DNA of 34,606 bases. Origin: a virus. The stretch is taken from positions 1-34,606 of the IMG/VR virus record IMGVR_UViG_3300037827_000058; one strand, 5' to 3'. Positions 2,744 to 30,735 of this stretch are shown here, in pieces. Under the pieces are notes generated by a model. The model was given only the letters and a program-made list of their open reading frames with translations, did not search any database and was not told the DNA's origin. Position 1 is the stretch's first letter, and the number at the start of each line of letters is the position of its first letter. Made by a program: the position numbers and the translations under genes.

Positions 2744-4293
2744 GAACTGCATCAGAGATTAGAAAGCACATTGCTGAGATTCAGCATCAGCGCAAGAAGG
2801 GCGTGGAACGCCAGATAACAGTAAAAGATAAAGGGATGATTATTCATGCTAATGACCAAGATAAAATCTATGTTCCGACTGCGACTGGTCGTATTGCTCA
2901 CCTCGATGACAGCTTTGTGCGTGTCATTATGGGCCCTTACGGAAGTGGTAAGTCTACATGGGCTCTTACAGAAATCGTCCAGCGAGCTTGTAGTGTGCCA
3001 GTGTGGCATGCTGGAAGACGTAGGAGCCGATGGGGAATTGTTAGGAACACAAGCGGAGAATTAAGCAGCACGACGCTTGCCTCGTGGCTATCATGGTTTG
3101 AAGAGCTTGGAGATGTTAGGAAAAGACAAAAGCCTGTTATGACTTACGAACACAGTTTTAATGATGGTCATGGCATAGTAGAGCTAGAATTGCTGTTTAT
3201 AGCCCTAGATAGACCCGAGGACGTGCGCAAGATTAAATCCTTGGAGTTGACAGGATGTTACATCAACGAGCTATCAGAGGTGCCACAGGCAGCTTTAGCG
3301 CATATGAAGGGTCGTGTTAATCGTTATCCTTCTAAAGCATTCTGTCATGAGCCTTATTGGTCAGGCATTATTGCTGATACGAACCCTCCAGAGGATGATC
3401 ACTGGATATACAAAGATTTTGAACAGAACACGTATGAGCATCACCGACTATTTAAACAACCACCAGGATTACTGAAACATGACGGTAAATGGGTACGTAA
3501 TCCTAACGCTGATAATGCTAGTCACTTACCTGACAATTATTACGAAATGCTTGCGGAAGGACAATCACAAGAGTTTATTAAGGTCTTTTGTCTTGGCGAA
3601 TATGGTTCTGTGGGTTTTGGTAAGCGTGTATACCCAGAGTTTAATCCTGACTTCCATGCAGTGGATTCACTCTCGGCTATCCAAGGTGAACAGCTCATAC
3701 TTGGTTGGGATTTTGGTCTTACTCCTGCTTGTGTTGTTGTGCAGTTGTCAGCTCGTGGACAATTGTTAATATTGAAAGAATATGTCGGCGATGGGATGGG
3801 AATCAGAACCTTTGCTGAAGCTATTGTAATCCCTAGCATCGCTAAGGATTTTCCTTATTGTAAAGTGGGTTTATCCATAGGAGACCCAGCAGGAAATGCG
3901 AGGAATGAAATTGTTGAAGAAATGTCCTGTATCGGGGAGCTTAATAGTCTGGGAATACCTACGACTTCTGCTCGCACCAATGACATTGATCCTCGCCTTG
4001 GTTCTGTCCGTTACTTTCTCAATCGAATGGTTGATGGAAAGCCTAGTCTTCTTCTTGATAGGCGTAATTGTCCTACACTGTTTAAGGGATTTGTTAAGGA
4101 CTATGTATTTGCACGGATTGCTGTATCAGGCGAGGAACGGTATAAAGATAAGCCTAATAAAAATATGTCCAGTCACCCGATGGACGGCTTGGGTTATGCG
4201 TGCCTTGAGATAGCGAGTGATAGGATTACGGCTGATAAAATGGGTGAGCAAAAGCATGTTGATATGTTTAACCCTGTTATGAGGATATTTTAA
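2740..4293 (+). CDS. terL: Terminase large subunit
   Basis: 517 aa with Walker A GPYGSGKST and Walker B-like CYINELSE. C-terminal nuclease-type acidic motifs are GWDFG, IGDPAG and HPMDG. Confidence 0.9.
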   Translation: MRTASEIRKHIAEIQHQRKKGVERQITVKDKGMIIHANDQDKIYVPTATGRIAHLDDSFVRVIMGPYGSGKSTWALTEIVQRACSVPVWHAGRRRSRWGIVRNTSGELSSTTLASWLSWFEELGDVRKRQKPVMTYEHSFNDGHGIVELELLFIALDRPEDVRKIKSLELTGCYINELSEVPQAALAHMKGRVNRYPSKAFCHEPYWSGIIADTNPPEDDHWIYKDFEQNTYEHHRLFKQPPGLLKHDGKWVRNPNADNASHLPDNYYEMLAEGQSQEFIKVFCLGEYGSVGFGKRVYPEFNPDFHAVDSLSAIQGEQLILGWDFGLTPACVVVQLSARGQLLILKEYVGDGMGIRTFAEAIVIPSIAKDFPYCKVGLSIGDPAGNARNEIVEEMSCIGELNSLGIPTTSARTNDIDPRLGSVRYFLNRMVDGKPSLLLDRRNCPTLFKGFVKDYVFARIAVSGEERYKDKPNKNMSSHPMDGLGYACLEIASDRITADKMGEQKHVDMFNPVMRIF

Positions 4294-24790: not shown

Positions 24791-25021
24791 TTATTGCGCA
24801 ATGAGTTCGTAGCCGCGACTCTTGCGCCTTTTAATCATTTTATCGATAAATTTTTTAACTTCTTCTTCGGTTTGCACAAGAATATTTTTGCGCCCACCAC
24901 GATTTGAATTACAGCCACCCCAACGGTGATTAAGTACAATATCATTAGTTCCATCTTTTTCTACTGTGATTTTATAATATCGGGCTTTTTCTCTATTTAA
25001 CCATTCATAAACATTAGGCAT
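24791..25021 (-). CDS. Stand-alone WGR-domain protein, 76 aa
   Basis: Sequence YYKITVEKDGTNDIVLNHRWGGCNSNRGGRKNILVQTEEEVKKFIDKMIKRRKSRGYELI fits the WGR pattern (F/Y-hydrophobic strands, WG-x-G, K...GY). Confidence 0.6.
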   Translation of the reverse strand: MPNVYEWLNREKARYYKITVEKDGTNDIVLNHRWGGCNSNRGGRKNILVQTEEEVKKFIDKMIKRRKSRGYELIAQ

Positions 25022-25136
25022 AGGTACTTAACATCTCCGCTATGGCTTCCTGCTGGGCAAACATAAGGTCTTCTTCAATGAAAAACTTAGGGTCTTGAAC
25101 ATCTACTTCATTACCGTCTACATCAAAAAATTGCAC
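25014..25136 (-). CDS. Possible acidic microprotein, 40 aa, GTG start
   Basis: Translated by eye as (M)QFFDVDGNEVDVQDPKFFIEEDLMFAQQEAIAEMLSTYA. The stop overlaps the WGR start by 8 nt. The start abuts a strong hairpin, so this is doubtful. Confidence 0.3.
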   Translation of the reverse strand: MQFFDVDGNEVDVQDPKFFIEEDLMFAQQEAIAEMLSTYA

Positions 25137-25165
25137 ATGCACACCTTATCTGAAAAGGTGTGCAT
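25137..25165 (-). terminator. 11-bp perfect hairpin, a possible leftward terminator or attenuator
   Basis: Stem atgcacacctt/aaggtgtgcat with a 7-nt loop. On the minus strand it is followed by GTGCAATTTTTTG. Confidence 0.35.
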
Positions 25166-25211
25166 CTTACGAAATTCTGATCTTGTGTGCAACATAGATG
25201 TCAACAAAAAT

Positions 25212-25252
25212 TGTCTGACAGAATGTCTGTCATATGACAGAGGACTTGTCAT
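25212..25252. promoter_or_regulatory. Operator-like cluster of TGTCA/TGACA half-sites, including a 16-bp perfect palindrome
   Basis: tctgtcatatgacaga at 25226-25241, tctgacaga at 25214-25222, and ttgtca at 25247-25252. Confidence 0.4.
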
Positions 25253-25343
25253 GAACATTATGAATAAATACTATACTAAAATACGGTATAAATCTTAACC
25301 ATGTTGTGGAGCAGTTTTTGACCAGTATAACATCGGTACAAAA

Positions 25344-25541
25344 TCATCCTAAATTATACCTATTGAATCTAATGTACACTAAAAATGTACTAACTACGGC
25401 CTTAGGTCTGATTATCAAACTAACCAGATATTTATATATGATGTATGTTATAATCAGACTTTTGACAGATGTAGCGTAACCCATAACAAGAAGCAAACGT
25501 TGGTTCATTTGTATTAGCTTGTCGATATTGTCAGGCGTCAT
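25344..25541 (-). CDS. Possible small hydrophobic protein, 65 aa
   Basis: ATGA start/stop overlap with the DUF2829 gene. The ORF is very AT-rich and may be non-coding. Confidence 0.3.
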   Translation of the reverse strand: MTPDNIDKLIQMNQRLLLVMGYATSVKSLIITYIIYKYLVSLIIRPKAVVSTFLVYIRFNRYNLG

Positions 25542-25912
25542 AATTCAATCCAATCTTCGGCCACAAATGATTCAAAGTCAGGAATAAAAGGAAATATTTC
25601 CATTGATTGCACCGCAAGAAGCCTTGTCGCTCTATCCAAAAATATAAACATTTCATTCCAATCTTTTAATTTAGCTTTGGATCCATTAACCAATAATGGA
25701 ATGATTTCACAGAATTTGTACTCAGTAGGTAAATCATCAACTAGCCATCCATCCGATACCATGATGTCTTCATTGTATGAATAATTAATCAATCTTGGTT
25801 GGAATGACTTAACATCTTCGCCTACCATTTTAAAATACACCCCTTCGCGCCACGGATGACGAGTTACCTTTGCCCCTGCTTTCAGGGAATCCATTGCATC
25901 ACAAAATTTCAT
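25538..25912 (-). CDS. Internally duplicated DUF2829 (Tad2-like) protein, 124 aa
   Basis: The two halves are KFCDAMDSLKAGAKVTRHPW...SDGWLV and KFCEIIPLLVNGSKAKLKDW...VAEDWIEL. The start overlaps the upstream phosphoesterase stop as ATGA. Confidence 0.6.
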   Translation of the reverse strand: MKFCDAMDSLKAGAKVTRHPWREGVYFKMVGEDVKSFQPRLINYSYNEDIMVSDGWLVDDLPTEYKFCEIIPLLVNGSKAKLKDWNEMFIFLDRATRLLAVQSMEIFPFIPDFESFVAEDWIEL

Positions 25913-26457
25913 TGGTCTATCTCCTTTATTCTATCCATGATTACGCTGCTGTTTACTGGCCTTAGATTATGTTGCTCTACACTTACATTAAAATAATTAG
26001 GGTCATCACCACCTGGCCAAACAACTTCTCCTTGATGAATTAATGTATTTCTCCAAACTCTTCTGCTATGCAAATGCCCATGAACATTAAGAAAAAATCT
26101 CTGTCCTAGATTATCAGGATGAACAGGAATATGCGTTAATATACATCTCTTCCAATGGTACGCACCAAACAACCTTTGAAAATGAGAAACATATAAATCG
26201 AAGCTATGACAATCGTGATTCCCCATAATGAGACGCTTGTGACCATGAAGCCTGTTAGCGATAGCAACATTGCTAGCCCCAAAAGCAAAGTCACCGAGAT
26301 GGAATACAATATCTTTCGGATTAACCGTCTCGTTCCAATTGGTAATAAGCTGTTCATTCATTTCCTCCACGGTTTCAAATGGTCGAGCTTCCTTCTCATA
26401 TTCAAGGATATTACGATGCCCGAAATGGGTATCTGAGGTAAAATAAGTCTCAGTCAT
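25909..26457 (-). CDS. Calcineurin-like metallophosphoesterase
   Basis: Motifs FTSDTHFGH, HLGDF, GNHD and HGHLH. The internal ATG at 26457 is preferred because the longer track ORF would overlap the HNH-AP2 gene. Confidence 0.85.
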   Translation of the reverse strand: MTETYFTSDTHFGHRNILEYEKEARPFETVEEMNEQLITNWNETVNPKDIVFHLGDFAFGASNVAIANRLHGHKRLIMGNHDCHSFDLYVSHFQRLFGAYHWKRCILTHIPVHPDNLGQRFFLNVHGHLHSRRVWRNTLIHQGEVVWPGGDDPNYFNVSVEQHNLRPVNSSVIMDRIKEIDQ

Positions 26458-26908
26458 AATACTTCCTTTGCGCATTAAGCACAGCTTGATAGGCTGCTTC
26501 TTGTGTTTTATAAACACCTAAAGAAATTCGTTTATATGCAACAGATATTCTTGCTCTCCAATTTCCATCGTGATGCTTTGTTACTCCTCTGTATCTACTT
26601 TCGCCTCCACGACTTTTTTGATACTGAATATTTTGTGCATGGGTGCATACTCTTAAATTGCTTTTTCTATTATCTAATGTATTACCATTGATATGGTCTA
26701 CTTCCATCCCATCAGGACAATTCATAATTTGCCTGTGCATTTTGACCTTGAGTCTCGTGCCTGATTCATCGGTCCCATTATTTCTAATCGCATAGAATCC
26801 ATTTTTTAATCTAGTTGGTTGTGCTTGCCATTTAAAGGCGATTATTTGTTTATAATCTTCTTCATCTATTCTCGCATATTGACCTTTTGTTAATTCAACC
26901 AACATCAT
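26450..26908 (-). CDS. HNH endonuclease with a C-terminal AP2 DNA-binding domain
   Basis: HNH motif VDHINGNTLDNRKSNLRVCTHAQN. AP2 motif YRGVTKHHDGNWRARISVAYKRISLGVYKTQEAAYQAV. Confidence 0.85.
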   Translation of the reverse strand: MMLVELTKGQYARIDEEDYKQIIAFKWQAQPTRLKNGFYAIRNNGTDESGTRLKVKMHRQIMNCPDGMEVDHINGNTLDNRKSNLRVCTHAQNIQYQKSRGGESRYRGVTKHHDGNWRARISVAYKRISLGVYKTQEAAYQAVLNAQRKYYD

Positions 26909-27062
26909 TCTCGCCTAATTCCTTTAGTAAGTTAGTTGCAGCCTGATTTATCCATGATATTGTTTCACGGTTTTGTAAATCGCCACCTGTCGCAATTGAT
27001 TCATTGGCAATCATTTTTACAAACTCAACTAGTCTGTCATATCTTTGACACAATTCCATCAT
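26895..27062 (-). CDS. Hypothetical protein, 55 aa
   Basis: Translated by eye as MMELCQRYDRLVEFVKMIANESIATGGDLQNRETISWINQ... It has an ATGA overlap with the upstream gene and a 14-nt overlap with the downstream gene. Confidence 0.45.
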   Translation of the reverse strand: MMELCQRYDRLVEFVKMIANESIATGGDLQNRETISWINQAATNLLKELGENDVG

Positions 27063-27331
27063 TTATCCTTTTGCTTATGGTCTACCCACCTAAGGGCTAA
27101 TTTAACTTTATCCATATACTGTTTTAAAATAAACTCTCTGCGTATTTGAAATGTTCCAGCTACTTTATCTATTATCTCCGCTGCAATGGCTGATGGCGCA
27201 GTTAAACATTGTTGAATAAAATATTTTCTATCATTCTCATAATCTCTTGGATCAATACATTCTATAAACTTCTGCACAAACTCATTAGTTAAGTCAGTTA
27301 GCTTCTTCAAATCCTCAAGTTTCTTATCCAC
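27059..27331 (-). CDS. Hypothetical helical protein, 90 aa, GTG start
   Basis: Track ORF with GGAGAAGG upstream of the GTG at 27331. Confidence 0.55.
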   Translation of the reverse strand: MDKKLEDLKKLTDLTNEFVQKFIECIDPRDYENDRKYFIQQCLTAPSAIAAEIIDKVAGTFQIRREFILKQYMDKVKLALRWVDHKQKDK

Positions 27332-27344
27332 CTAATACCTTCTC

Positions 27345-27530
27345 CATAAAAGGGTGGGATAGAGGGATTTTCACCCTCACCTACCTCGTTAGCTTACTTG
27401 TACCAGCCCTTTTCTATTTCTAGCGGGTCACTCGCGACTCAGGTTTCCCATTGCCCTTTCCTATTCAGCCTCGGCTATGCCAAAATGAGGCGCTCTTCGA
27501 TCACGCGCGTCTTTTCGAGCTCTATCCCAT
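27345..27530 (-). ncRNA. Candidate structured RNA or cis-regulatory leader, family unrecognised
   Basis: No ORF on either strand, and visibly GC-richer than its surroundings. A 9-bp long-range helix pairs 27520-27528 with 27356-27364. Local hairpins are present. At the 3' end on the minus strand, stem AGGGUG/CACCCU is followed by UUUUAU. Confidence 0.35.
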
Positions 27531-27536
27531 AAACAA

Positions 27537-28031
27537 TTAAAACGCTATATCATCATCAGCGAAGGGATCGTCTTCTGCCTTTTTAGCTAGTGGCTTTTGA
27601 TCTTCCTTCTTGATATAGTCCTCAACTTTGTTCTTATCTGGGTACTTACTCCCAGCAGGTTTCCCTTTTAACTTATCTTGTGGAATTTCGCCACCTTCTT
27701 CAATAGTAATTTTTACTCGAACCCGATTGCCAATGGCGACTTCTGAACATAATTTACCAGACTCATATTGTGGTAACAGTCCTGCTGAATCAGCAAAATG
27801 AATAACCTTCCACATCATGCTCTTCGTAAACACAAGGAAGTCTCGAACATCACGGGCCTTTCCATCTTCATCAAAAACCTGCAAGGTGATGTCCATCATA
27901 GGGTTACCGCTATTGGCAGAAACCTTATCTTGTGAGGCAGATATTACCGCCTCATACTCACCTTCTTTAAGAAGGTTAAATCGCTCTTCGATAGCTTCCT
28001 GCTCTGACATTACTGAATATTGAAATGACAT
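27537..28031 (-). CDS. SSB-like protein (DUF669-type) with an acidic C-terminal tail
   Basis: The C-terminus DDPFADDDIAF resembles the SSB tip. The gene is a neighbour of the Sak4-type ATPase. The start at the ATG at 28031 has GGAGA 9 nt upstream and TAATG coupling. Confidence 0.6.
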   Translation of the reverse strand: MSFQYSVMSEQEAIEERFNLLKEGEYEAVISASQDKVSANSGNPMMDITLQVFDEDGKARDVRDFLVFTKSMMWKVIHFADSAGLLPQYESGKLCSEVAIGNRVRVKITIEEGGEIPQDKLKGKPAGSKYPDKNKVEDYIKKEDQKPLAKKAEDDPFADDDIAF

Positions 28032-28531
28032 TATATATTTCTCCATGTTATGTTACGAACGATTCTATCTATTGCACTTATTGAGGTGCCATATATTTTT
28101 GATAACTCTGTGCAATTCATTGTTTTTGAATAAGACATTCTTATTTTTATGATATCTTCTTCTTTTAGCTTAGCCGTCCCATTCCGTTCACCAAATGACC
28201 CAACATATCCATTTCTATTCTTTTGAAACATGTCTTGCGTGTTATCTTTTTTTGTTCCTAGCCATAGATGCTCTGGATTAACACATTTCCTGTTGTCACA
28301 GGAATGCAGAACGCACATCCCCGCAGGGATCAATCCAATAAAAAATTCATAAGAATATCTATGGGCATGAATCCATTTTTTATTTAGAGTTTTAAACTGT
28401 CCATATCCATTAGACTTTATTGTTCCTCTCCACTCCAAGCATCCGTTATTGCTAATTAAGATGTTTGAATAAAATCTATTTTTATTTGTATTCAATATTC
28501 CAGAATCTCGAATATATCTATGGCTAGTCAT
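28031..28531 (-). CDS. HNH_3-type homing endonuclease with a C-terminal HTH
   Basis: Motifs NGYGQF and LHSCDNRKCVNPEHLWLGTKKDN, with C-terminal LSKIYGTSISAIDRIVRNITW. Confidence 0.8.
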   Translation of the reverse strand: MTSHRYIRDSGILNTNKNRFYSNILISNNGCLEWRGTIKSNGYGQFKTLNKKWIHAHRYSYEFFIGLIPAGMCVLHSCDNRKCVNPEHLWLGTKKDNTQDMFQKNRNGYVGSFGERNGTAKLKEEDIIKIRMSYSKTMNCTELSKIYGTSISAIDRIVRNITWRNI

Positions 28532-28532
28532 T

Positions 28533-29375
28533 TTATCCCTCTATCTGCTTTTTTAAATGATCGATACATTTCTGTATTTGTTCAGAAGTCATTTCTTCAA
28601 AACAGGTAGACTCTGATTTTGATAACCATTTATCTGTTATTTCTTGAGACACCTTCAATAGCTCTATTAATCTTTTTATCTCTGTAATTTGTTCAGATGA
28701 TGCCAATACCTGAGGAACAGAATCTTTTTCTAATATTTCTTTTCCATATCTCTTAGACATTTCTTTATAACTAAAAGGGAAAGTATCCCCATCCGGGAAG
28801 CTTTCTATGCGTGATTTCCTAACCAGACCCACTCTTTCTTTTCCTCTTTTTTGGATTTCAAACACTAAATCAAACAAATAATCCAATTTTTTATAGCCAT
28901 CGAAGGTTTGCCCGAGAACAGATAAATTTGCTCCATATTCATTCTTGCTATGACAAGTAATAATTACATTCATATCAAGTCTGAAAAGAAGATTAAGCAA
29001 TTGCTTCATTCTCTTATTTCCTTCGCCATAATGCCTTCCAAACTCTGTGCCCACCTTGCGCTCTGCTTTCTCTAACAAGTCGTTGTATAACAGCGTCAGC
29101 GAGTCTATAACCAGGGTCTTGTATTCGTGCTTGGTCGTTAAAAGCTCGCGGACTTCATTAACCATCTCATCGAAATCTACGGTCATCAGTACCGCGCCGT
29201 CCACCTCTTCAATCGCTCTGACGTACTGAGGCTTGTTCGTTGAGCCCTCAGTGTCGATGATGTAAGGTCTTGGGAATTGGATTGCAGCCATCGTCTTACC
29301 GACACCGGCACAACCATAAAACAATGCCTTAAGTCGTGACTCAATCATTGCTGGTTTCTTTGCTTTTAACGCCAT
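28533..29375 (-). CDS. Sak4-like AAA_24 ATPase (RecA-like single-strand annealing / recombination protein)
   Basis: Walker A GCAGVGKT and Walker B LVIDSLT, followed by the IITCH motif. Size and context are typical for this family. Confidence 0.75.
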   Translation of the reverse strand: MALKAKKPAMIESRLKALFYGCAGVGKTMAAIQFPRPYIIDTEGSTNKPQYVRAIEEVDGAVLMTVDFDEMVNEVRELLTTKHEYKTLVIDSLTLLYNDLLEKAERKVGTEFGRHYGEGNKRMKQLLNLLFRLDMNVIITCHSKNEYGANLSVLGQTFDGYKKLDYLFDLVFEIQKRGKERVGLVRKSRIESFPDGDTFPFSYKEMSKRYGKEILEKDSVPQVLASSEQITEIKRLIELLKVSQEITDKWLSKSESTCFEEMTSEQIQKCIDHLKKQIEG

Positions 29376-30509: not shown

Positions 30510-30543
30510 GTTTTTATCTCCTAACATAACCACTTATGTACAA

Positions 30544-30735
30544 TTATACATGTGTATCCAATCGTGTCAACTTACTTTCAATCTTTTTTTTGTGCTTCTC
30601 TATGCATTCCACTATAATCTGAGTCATAGAAGTCTCTTTTGCTGCGGCTTCTGCTTTTAAAAATATCCATAATTCTTTTGCAATTCTCATGTTAAAAATC
30701 TTTATTTCACTATCTTGTTTAGACATCTTACTCAC
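30544..30735 (-). CDS. Ribbon-helix-helix (Arc/CopG-like) regulator candidate
   Basis: Sequence FNMRIAKELWIFLKAEAAAKETSMTQIIVECIEK has a strand-helix-helix pattern. It is the first gene of the leftward unit. Confidence 0.55.
   Translation of the reverse strand: MSKMSKQDSEIKIFNMRIAKELWIFLKAEAAAKETSMTQIIVECIEKHKKKIESKLTRLDTHV

Follow-up and report, generated by a model that had tools for sequence, protein, structure and literature searches.

When the stop codon of one phage gene overlaps the start codon of the next, do the two genes form a functional unit? The question is raised by two minus-strand genes of the IMG/VR virus contig IMGVR_UViG_3300037827_000058, which is approximately 34.6 kb long, apparently complete, and referred to here, at its full length, as the window. 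The upstream gene (25909-26457, 182 amino acids) encodes a putative calcineurin-like metallophosphoesterase (MPE). The downstream gene (25538-25912, 124 amino acids) encodes two copies of the DUF2829 domain, the domain of the phage sponge Tad2, and is called the tandem gene below. The initial annotation proposed that they are a dedicated, translationally coupled pair, in which the enzyme degrades an immune signal that the sponge sequesters.

Sponges of the Tad2 family rank among the most widespread phage counter-defences, and bind glycocyclic ADP-ribose (gcADPR), histidine-ADP-ribose (His-ADPR), N7-cyclic ADP-ribose (N7-cADPR), cCMP and cUMP, and cyclic dinucleotides. We analyzed the two proteins, their families, and the gene order of related phages, and favor, with moderate confidence, a reading in which a duplicated Tad2-type sponge is accompanied by an MPE of the aq_1665/phrog_547 kind that is an independent accessory cassette.

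A Tad2-Like Protein with Two Domains

The complete tandem protein matches the Pfam profile PF11195 (Tad2-like) in two stretches, with 44.4 bits against a cut-off of 25 (E = 2.4e-11). Scanned alone, residues 1-60 score 26.4 bits (E = 1e-5), and residues 61-124 score 22.8 bits, just below the cut-off, with an E-value of 1.4e-4 and coverage of profile positions 2-71 out of 73. The halves also recognize each other: an hhalign comparison based on a 45-sequence family alignment joins them with a probability of 94% (E = 1e-7) over 25 columns at 32% identity, and tblastn with the window protein pairs its half 2 with half 1 in a relative (E = 1e-5). Both open with KFC (MKFCDAM and YKFCEII) and they close with SDGW and AEDW, respectively, so that the description of two DUF2829-like halves, each bounded by KFC and a (D/E)(G/D)W motif, holds in every part. 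The internal duplication is well beyond chance expectation. One DUF2829 domain carrying a large insertion was also considered, prompted by a HMMER alignment that places Tad2 on residues 2-51 and 104-121; it was rejected because residues 61-124 alone span the Pfam profile and because the halves match one another.

Domain 1 comprises residues 1-58 (25739-25912, minus strand) and consists of a helix, three strands, a short helix, and a strand; it contains W21 and the invariant residues E48-D49-I50-M51 and W56. Domain 2, residues 65-124 (25541-25720, minus strand), has the same order of secondary structure elements and contains W85, F109, D120, and W121. The linker between them is only about six to eight residues long, and the two domains therefore probably pack against each other. 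An AlphaFold2 model built on the family alignment (mean predicted local distance difference test score [pLDDT] 93.2; predicted template modeling score [pTM] 0.71) contains the element order twice. A Foldseek search of the Protein Data Bank (PDB) with this model, one of the checks suggested at initial annotation, returned Tad2 structures as all six best matches (SPO1 Tad2, 8smf, 8smg, and 8wje; Myroides Tad2, 8v3e), with probabilities of 0.91-0.99 and template modeling (TM) scores on the target of 0.50-0.57. Among BFVD models the best matches were mostly Tad2-like proteins of 60-107 amino acids or larger fusions, and no BFVD match covered the two-domain protein end to end. When PDB sequences were searched with the family profile, SptTad2 (E = 2.5e-4), ModTad2, SPO1 gp34.65, HgmTad2, and AcrIIA7 were found.

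The resemblance to characterized Tad2 proteins (SPO1 gp34.65, HgmTad2, SptTad2, MoTad2; PF11195) extends beyond the profile match of both halves. Each half has the Tad2 order of a helix at the N terminus, then an antiparallel sheet with short helices; the tandem protein carries the hallmark G-x-K-V-x-R-x-x-W and A-E-D-W motifs, and, as with Tad2, the gene is a small early phage gene. SPO1 Tad2 contacts gcADPR through W25, N26, W73, and D79 of two protomers (bioRxiv 10.1101/2023.05.01.538930). By alignment, the counterparts of W25 are W21 (half 1) and W85 (half 2), and those of W73 are the aromatic residues Y44/Y46 (half 1) and F109 (half 2). These aromatic positions are conserved: among 138 diverse family members, W21 is kept in 129, W85 in 128, and phenylalanine or tyrosine at position 109 in 123.

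There are also differences. Tad2 has been described as a single-domain homotetramer (10.1101/2023.11.15.567273), with one domain of about 75-100 amino acids per chain, whereas here two domains, strongly diverged from each other, share a chain of 124.

Distribution of the Two-Domain Family

A word-indexed search identified 64 homologous clusters at 90% identity, all of about 125 amino acids and many on contigs of 33-36 kb. An exhaustive search of representatives extended this to 298 clusters at 50% identity with E ≤ 1e-3, 159 of them with E ≤ 1e-10; nearly all of the latter are 120-145 amino acids long and align with profile positions 1 to about 124, and distant members visibly bear both sets of motifs. 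Because of this number of clusters and the persistence of both motif sets, we regard the predicted two-domain layout as that of an established subfamily and not a one-off.

No member was detected by tblastn, using the window protein and two distant members as queries, in the 50,697 deposited phage genomes of INPHARED, so that the tandem family, unlike Tad2, has no cultured-phage member in that collection. Megablast of window positions 25000-27500 against INPHARED likewise gave no match. Among species representatives of GTDB there was a single family member, on a 9-kb contig of a metagenome-assembled genome of the Gammaproteobacteria; assigning a host from this one contig was rejected as too weak. 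As the initial annotation had supposed, the searchable literature yielded no description of a tandem or duplicated Tad2, and the reported Tad2 fusions are to Acb4 or to Sequestin only (PMC12265669). The two-domain Tad2-like subfamily is thus real, sizeable, so far confined to uncultivated phages, and undescribed in the searchable literature.

The tandem gene occupies a characteristic place. Among 46 related loci retrieved through it, all 43 whose upstream flank reaches far enough place it after AAA_24 and DUF669; in the remaining three (L005, L010, and L013) less than 1.7 kb of upstream sequence is present. In the window the corresponding genes form a conserved upstream anchor block of the early operon (27537-29375, minus strand), consisting of an AAA_24 gene (28533-29375), the second HNH gene of the operon (HNH_3; 28031-28531), and a gene for a protein resembling single-stranded DNA-binding proteins (DUF669; 27537-28046), all on the minus strand and identified by Pfam and PHROG matches. 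Across the relatives, the interval from DUF669 to the tandem gene varies from 20 to 2011 nt and holds zero to eight open reading frames (ORFs). In the window this variable cargo slot (26895-27331, minus strand) contains p90, p55, the HNH-AP2 gene, and the MPE gene.

A second sample was anchored on AAA_24, with at least 3 kb of downstream sequence and without the tandem gene as bait. The tandem gene is present in 30 of these 41 loci and missing from 11. It is common but dispensable, more in keeping with an anti-defence gene than with a core replication gene. Relatives in which no tandem gene follows DUF669 include L134, L135, L139, L142, L147, L151, and L153, with AAA_24 77-83% identical; they carry instead unrelated small ORFs without a Pfam match and occasional genes for resolvase, IS66 TnpB, DUF6378, and DUF7694. 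The region downstream of DUF669 is a hotspot of gene turnover.

In a sister lineage, locus L053 has a 60-amino-acid ORF (L053 positions 2800-2982, plus strand) with one DUF2829 domain that is close to the halves of the tandem family (E = 2e-15 against a hidden Markov model of the half-domain). The ORF lies about 1 kb upstream of the MPE gene in that locus and may represent a single-domain relative of the duplicated protein.

The Phosphoesterase

The MPE translation contains the motifs SDTHFGH, LGDF, GNHD, and HGHLH, as first annotated. All five motifs of the superfamily are complete (D9-T-H11, G55-D56, G79-N-H-D82, H109, and G127-H-L-H130) and invariant in a 28-sequence alignment, by which we classify the protein as a calcineurin-like metallophosphoesterase with intact predicted catalytic motifs. 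It matches phrog_547 ("phosphoesterase") with an E-value of 4e-51; its match to Pfam Metallophos_2, at 18.2 bits, is below the cut-off of 27, and many close homologues have a precomputed match to PF00149. The family is very large, with 2559 deposited phage records and 2563 clusters at E ≤ 1e-10.

The nearest known structure is that of the uncharacterized protein aq_1665 from Aquifex aeolicus (1xm7), found by sequence (E = 5e-11, about 25% identity) and as the only strong structural neighbor of the MPE model (pLDDT 85.5; Foldseek E = 1.3e-10, TM score 0.66). Like aq_1665, the MPE is a minimal calcineurin-like fold of about 180 amino acids without a cap domain; the comparison with aq_1665 and PHROG 547 gives no substrate. 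The remaining structural neighbors are generic (E ≥ 1e-3) and include a COG0622 protein, Vps29, LpxH, the MJ0936 phosphodiesterase, Rv0805 (E = 0.017, TM score 0.39), and Mre11 (E = 0.03-0.06). The best NCBIfam match is TIGR04123, the ligase-associated endonuclease PdeM, at 20.6 bits against a cut-off of 150.

These searches bear on two statements of the initial annotation. It had linked the enzyme to hydrolases of the CpdA type and to ADPRibase-Mn, and neither was matched in searches of Pfam, NCBIfam, and PDB sequences; by sequence and structure, the tie to cyclic-nucleotide phosphodiesterases (CpdA/Rv0805) and to ADPRibase-Mn is at the level of the calcineurin-like superfamily and its shared motifs. 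It had also named clustering with DNA-repair nucleases as evidence that would count against its proposal, and of this there is a faint resemblance to PdeM and Mre11 at the scores given above and no match at the family level. Literature searches on aq_1665, 1XM7, and phrog_547 gave no defined substrate for any aq_1665-like family member, and those on Thoeris and CBASS gave no example of a calcineurin-like enzyme that cleaves a phage-defence signal.

The neighborhoods of MPE homologues point in another direction. A Pfam scan of 135 genes immediately beside 80 homologues found RNA ligase (two), T4-type RNA ligase, RtcB, and endonuclease VII (two), and further neighbors encode Thy1, the small subunit of ribonucleotide reductase, dGTP diphosphohydrolase, NADAR, RusA, and a pyrimidine-dimer glycosylase. 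The MPE is most defensibly described as a metal-dependent phosphoesterase that is predicted to act on the ends of nucleic acids or on nucleotides, in a context of replication and nucleotide metabolism.

In other phages (L047-L126), MPE homologues recurrently adjoin RNA ligase, T4-type RNA ligase, and RtcB genes, a hint that some phrog_547 members may heal RNA ends.

An Accessory Cassette beside the Tandem Gene

The overlap of the two genes is real. Plus-strand positions 25909-25912 read tcat, or ATGA on the coding strand, and the TGA stop of the MPE gene shares bases with the ATG of the tandem gene. The MPE start at 26457 is preceded by a ribosome-binding site, AAGGAAG, and is also where alignments with homologues begin. 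The tandem gene has a ribosome-binding site of its own, AAGGAG (25921-25926, minus strand), 8 nt before its ATG and within the 3' end of the MPE gene; the reverse complement around it reads ...ATAAAGGAGATAGACCAATG. From AAA_24 to the ORF that follows the tandem gene, seven of the nine junctions overlap, by 4-16 nt, and an eighth has a spacer of 1 nt; the sole real gap, of 205 nt, lies between DUF669 and p90. In relatives that lack the MPE, the tandem gene overlaps another small gene. For these reasons the ATGA junction is generic, and the translational coupling proposed at initial annotation is not specific to the pair.

Gene content points the same way. Among the 46 loci found through the tandem gene, the MPE gene lies directly upstream in only five (L034, L035, L042, L043, and L045). 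In the others that position is held by a p55-like or other small ORF, often with an 8-nt overlap. In the AAA_24-anchored sample, the MPE gene occurs in three of 41 loci as against 30 for the tandem gene; all three MPE loci have the tandem gene adjoining, which against the background of 30 in 41 is not significant (hand-computed hypergeometric p of approximately 0.38). On a tree of tandem proteins, MPE presence is patchy. Nearly identical tandem genes occur with the MPE gene (L048 and L049) and without it (L040, L041, and L036), and the closest relatives of the window tandem protein (71-74% identity) have unrelated genes of 96-134 amino acids upstream in place of the MPE. The clearest case is the comparison of L035 with L040: between flanks of 84-92% nucleotide identity, positions 5332-5986 of L035, with the MPE gene, replace 105 nt of L040, a clean insertion or deletion of an MPE cassette.

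The reciprocal view, from the 80 top-ranking IMG/VR loci retrieved with the MPE, is similar. A DUF2829 ORF lies within 4 kb in eight of them, seven of which come from the same clade or from sister lineages. Among the latter, L051, L053, and L055 have the DUF2829 gene upstream of the MPE gene and not adjacent to it, so that in L051 and L055 the order is opposite to that in the window. Tad2-like genes make up four of the 135 immediate neighbors of MPE homologues, three of them from the window clade; outside the clade, an adjoining DUF2829 gene was seen in one of about 72 MPE loci. This is the unrelated phage L076, in which a single-domain DUF2829 ORF lies about 120 nt downstream of an MPE gene whose product is 42% identical to that of the window.

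Adjacency, the conservation of which had been made a touchstone of the proposed pair, is thus not conserved among relatives, and a pairing is not supported. The tandem gene is maintained in phages that lack the MPE and presumably functions there. The distribution of the MPE gene and its insertion or deletion mark it as an independent accessory cassette in the variable cargo slot beside the tandem gene, and the best explanation of the overlap is tight packing of genes in the operon and not a dedicated partnership.

Other Features of the Early Region

The plus strand of the window carries structural genes up to about 24.8 kb, and the early operon runs leftward on the minus strand from about 30.5 kb to 25.2 kb. 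A perfect sigma-70 consensus (TTGACA-16-TATAAT, 12 of 12 positions; 30543-30570, minus strand) points into the operon and, as a consensus match only, is its likely promoter. Downstream of the tandem gene there is a terminator-like hairpin with a run of T residues (25216-25232, minus strand), likewise a consensus match only.

The HNH-AP2 homing endonuclease gene (26450-26908, minus strand; PF13392, E = 2e-11; AP2, E = 1.6e-5; phrog_99, E = 3e-30) is inserted directly upstream of the MPE gene, the start of which it overlaps by 8 nt. It is missing from the five MPE-bearing relatives of the first locus set (L034, L035, L042, L043, and L045). Both HNH genes of the early operon overlap their neighbors and occur in only some relatives, as is typical of mobile intron-less homing genes.

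At its stop codon the tandem gene meets a 65-amino-acid ORF (25344-25541, minus strand) in a further ATGA overlap. Conservation is limited to the first 26 residues of this ORF (shared with L045, L050, and L008); the remainder is AT-rich and of low complexity. A deletion in the poorly coding stretch of about 320 nt at 25143-25465 probably truncated the original gene and left this ORF as its remnant. Farther downstream lie an acidic 42-amino-acid ORF (25014-25142, minus strand) and, overlapping it, a gene for a stand-alone WGR-domain protein of 76 amino acids (24791-25021, minus strand; PF05406, E = 5e-7), a conserved pair that ends the early region of most related phages. In PARP enzymes, the WGR domain adjoins the catalytic machinery for NAD+ and ADP-ribose. 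Against that background, a small WGR protein near a Tad2-like gene is noteworthy, and suggestive.

Discussion

A hydrolase and a sponge acting on one signal would be attractive: the overlap exists, the predicted active site of the MPE is intact, and in the clade the MPE gene, when present, always lies directly upstream of the tandem gene, overlapping it in the window and in L034, L035, L042, L043, L045, and L050. The arrangement in the unrelated phage L076 could be read in the same way. Such a dedicated pair is nevertheless very improbable. The MPE is rare where the tandem gene is common, with no significant association; tandem genes that are nearly identical differ in having it, and the window's own closest relatives do without it. 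L051 and L055 keep both genes apart and in reverse order, overlapping junctions are the rule in the operon, the tandem gene has its own ribosome-binding site, and Tad2-like neighbors of MPE homologues are few and come mainly from the window clade. The enzyme also lacks specific similarity to CpdA/Rv0805 or ADPRibase-Mn, and a calcineurin-like enzyme that cleaves a defence signal was not found in the literature searches. Phage enzymes that do degrade signals (Acb1, Apyc1, and Acb5) would be functional counterparts of the MPE only if the pairing idea were right. Neither Acb1 (2H fold) nor Apyc1 (metallo-beta-lactamase fold) resembles the MPE. A looser version, in which the MPE would be an optional, mobile enhancer of the sponge, a calcineurin-like phosphodiesterase that hydrolyzes the same signal (or signal released or left uncaptured) and is retained repeatedly at one insertion point, seems just as remote; if true, it would make the MPE the first signal-degrading anti-defence enzyme with a calcineurin-like fold, and the arrangement the first module of enzyme plus sponge.

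For the MPE itself, a role in phage replication, repair, or RNA repair, acting on nucleic-acid ends or nucleotides and unrelated to the tandem gene, has close to an even chance; candidates are a 2',3'-cyclic or 3'-phosphate phosphoesterase and a small nuclease. The neighbors of its homologues, from RNA ligases and RtcB to endonuclease VII, Thy1, ribonucleotide reductase, and RusA, argue for such a role, and PdeM as the best NCBIfam match and Mre11 among the structural neighbors are consistent with it, although the PdeM score is far below its cut-off and no aq_1665-like member with a defined substrate was found. Another clade of early-expressed phage calcineurin-like phosphoesterases, that of Bxb1 gp47 (a recombination directionality factor) and A10ZJ24 gp48, has reported roles in replication, excision, and host-DNA damage (PMC11795197, PMC12287305), and gp48 is reported to help evade host defence by damaging host DNA (PMC12287305). 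Membership of the window MPE in this group was considered and rejected: at 182 amino acids as against 255, it gives a BLASTP E-value of 0.019 over 31 residues and an hhalign probability of 0.9%, so that no relation beyond the superfamily motifs is detectable, and the roles of gp47 and gp48 cannot be transferred to it.

The tandem protein most likely acts as Tad2 does and binds and sequesters an immune signal derived from a nucleotide, of the kind used by Thoeris, CBASS, or Pycsar. We favor a sponge because the gene is common but dispensable and because, in a survey across the diversity of the sponge families Acb2, Tad1, and Tad2, 65 of 84 homologues inhibited at least one signaling defence, the tested Tad2 homologues covering CBASS, Pycsar, and three types of Thoeris (PMC12393519). 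Several observations weigh against the interpretation as a whole. The Foldseek E-values are weak (0.002-0.2 overall, 0.04-0.2 for the PDB) and the superpositions poor (root-mean-square deviation of about 12 Å), as a result of laying a two-domain query on one-domain targets. The polar gcADPR contacts of Tad2 are kept only in part: the equivalents of D79 are D49 (half 1, within the run E48-D49-I50-M51) and S115 (half 2), and those of N26 are R22 and N86, both variable across the family. Among the 138 family members these positions are mixed, with aspartate, serine, or asparagine at 49 and aspartate, cysteine, or serine at 115. Taken with the aromatic positions, this pattern fits a putative pocket that is retained with altered polar specificity. 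A Pfam scan of 58 ORFs in the slot of relatives without the tandem gene found no recognizable alternative anti-defence family, and the slot thus gives no support to the idea of an anti-defence island. The constant adjacency of the clade MPE, discussed above, sits awkwardly with an independent cassette. AcrIIA7, a DUF2829 protein, is reported to bind tracrRNA and not a signal (PMC13133391), and the position of the tandem gene, always after the recombination genes, would fit a role related to DNA or RNA as well.

These last two points, with the partial conservation of the polar contacts, are what speaks for the tandem protein being an accessory of the AAA_24/DUF669 recombination-replication module, or an AcrIIA7-like nucleic-acid binder, with DNA, RNA, or protein as its partner. 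We consider this rather unlikely. The 11 close relatives that have AAA_24 and DUF669 without the tandem gene argue that it is not a core replication component, and between it and DUF669 lies a variable slot of zero to eight ORFs. The aromatic pocket residues are kept in both halves, and most sponge-family members that have been tested are active (PMC12393519).

As a sponge, the tandem protein would have a distinctive architecture. The gene carries an old internal duplication of the Tad2/DUF2829 fold and is a frequent, non-universal early gene of a clade of uncultivated phages of about 35 kb, downstream of the AAA_24-DUF669 recombination genes, with the MPE cassette as an unrelated accessory gene in the cargo slot directly upstream. 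Because the pockets of Tad2 lie between protomers of a homotetramer, one two-domain chain may be a covalent pseudo-dimer, and two chains could rebuild an assembly of four domains with non-equivalent pockets. That the protein does form such an assembly, with a ligand range unlike that of homotetrameric Tad2, is a tentative proposal that we consider less likely than not. Two signal-sponge domains in one polypeptide are an established counter-defence theme, as in the fusions Tad2-Acb4, Tad2-Sequestin, and Sequestin-Acb4 (PMC12265669); those join two distinct families, each modeled as its own homo-oligomer, whereas here the same family is duplicated.

The negative part of our result drops an attractive but unsupported hydrolase-plus-sponge operon from the list of candidates. 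It also carries the lesson that stop/start overlaps in densely packed phage early operons are not evidence for functional pairing. On the positive side, if the tandem protein is a sponge, this large undescribed two-domain Tad2 subfamily would illustrate how a homo-oligomeric sponge loses its symmetry through duplication, permitting asymmetric pockets and, possibly, new or dual ligand specificity.

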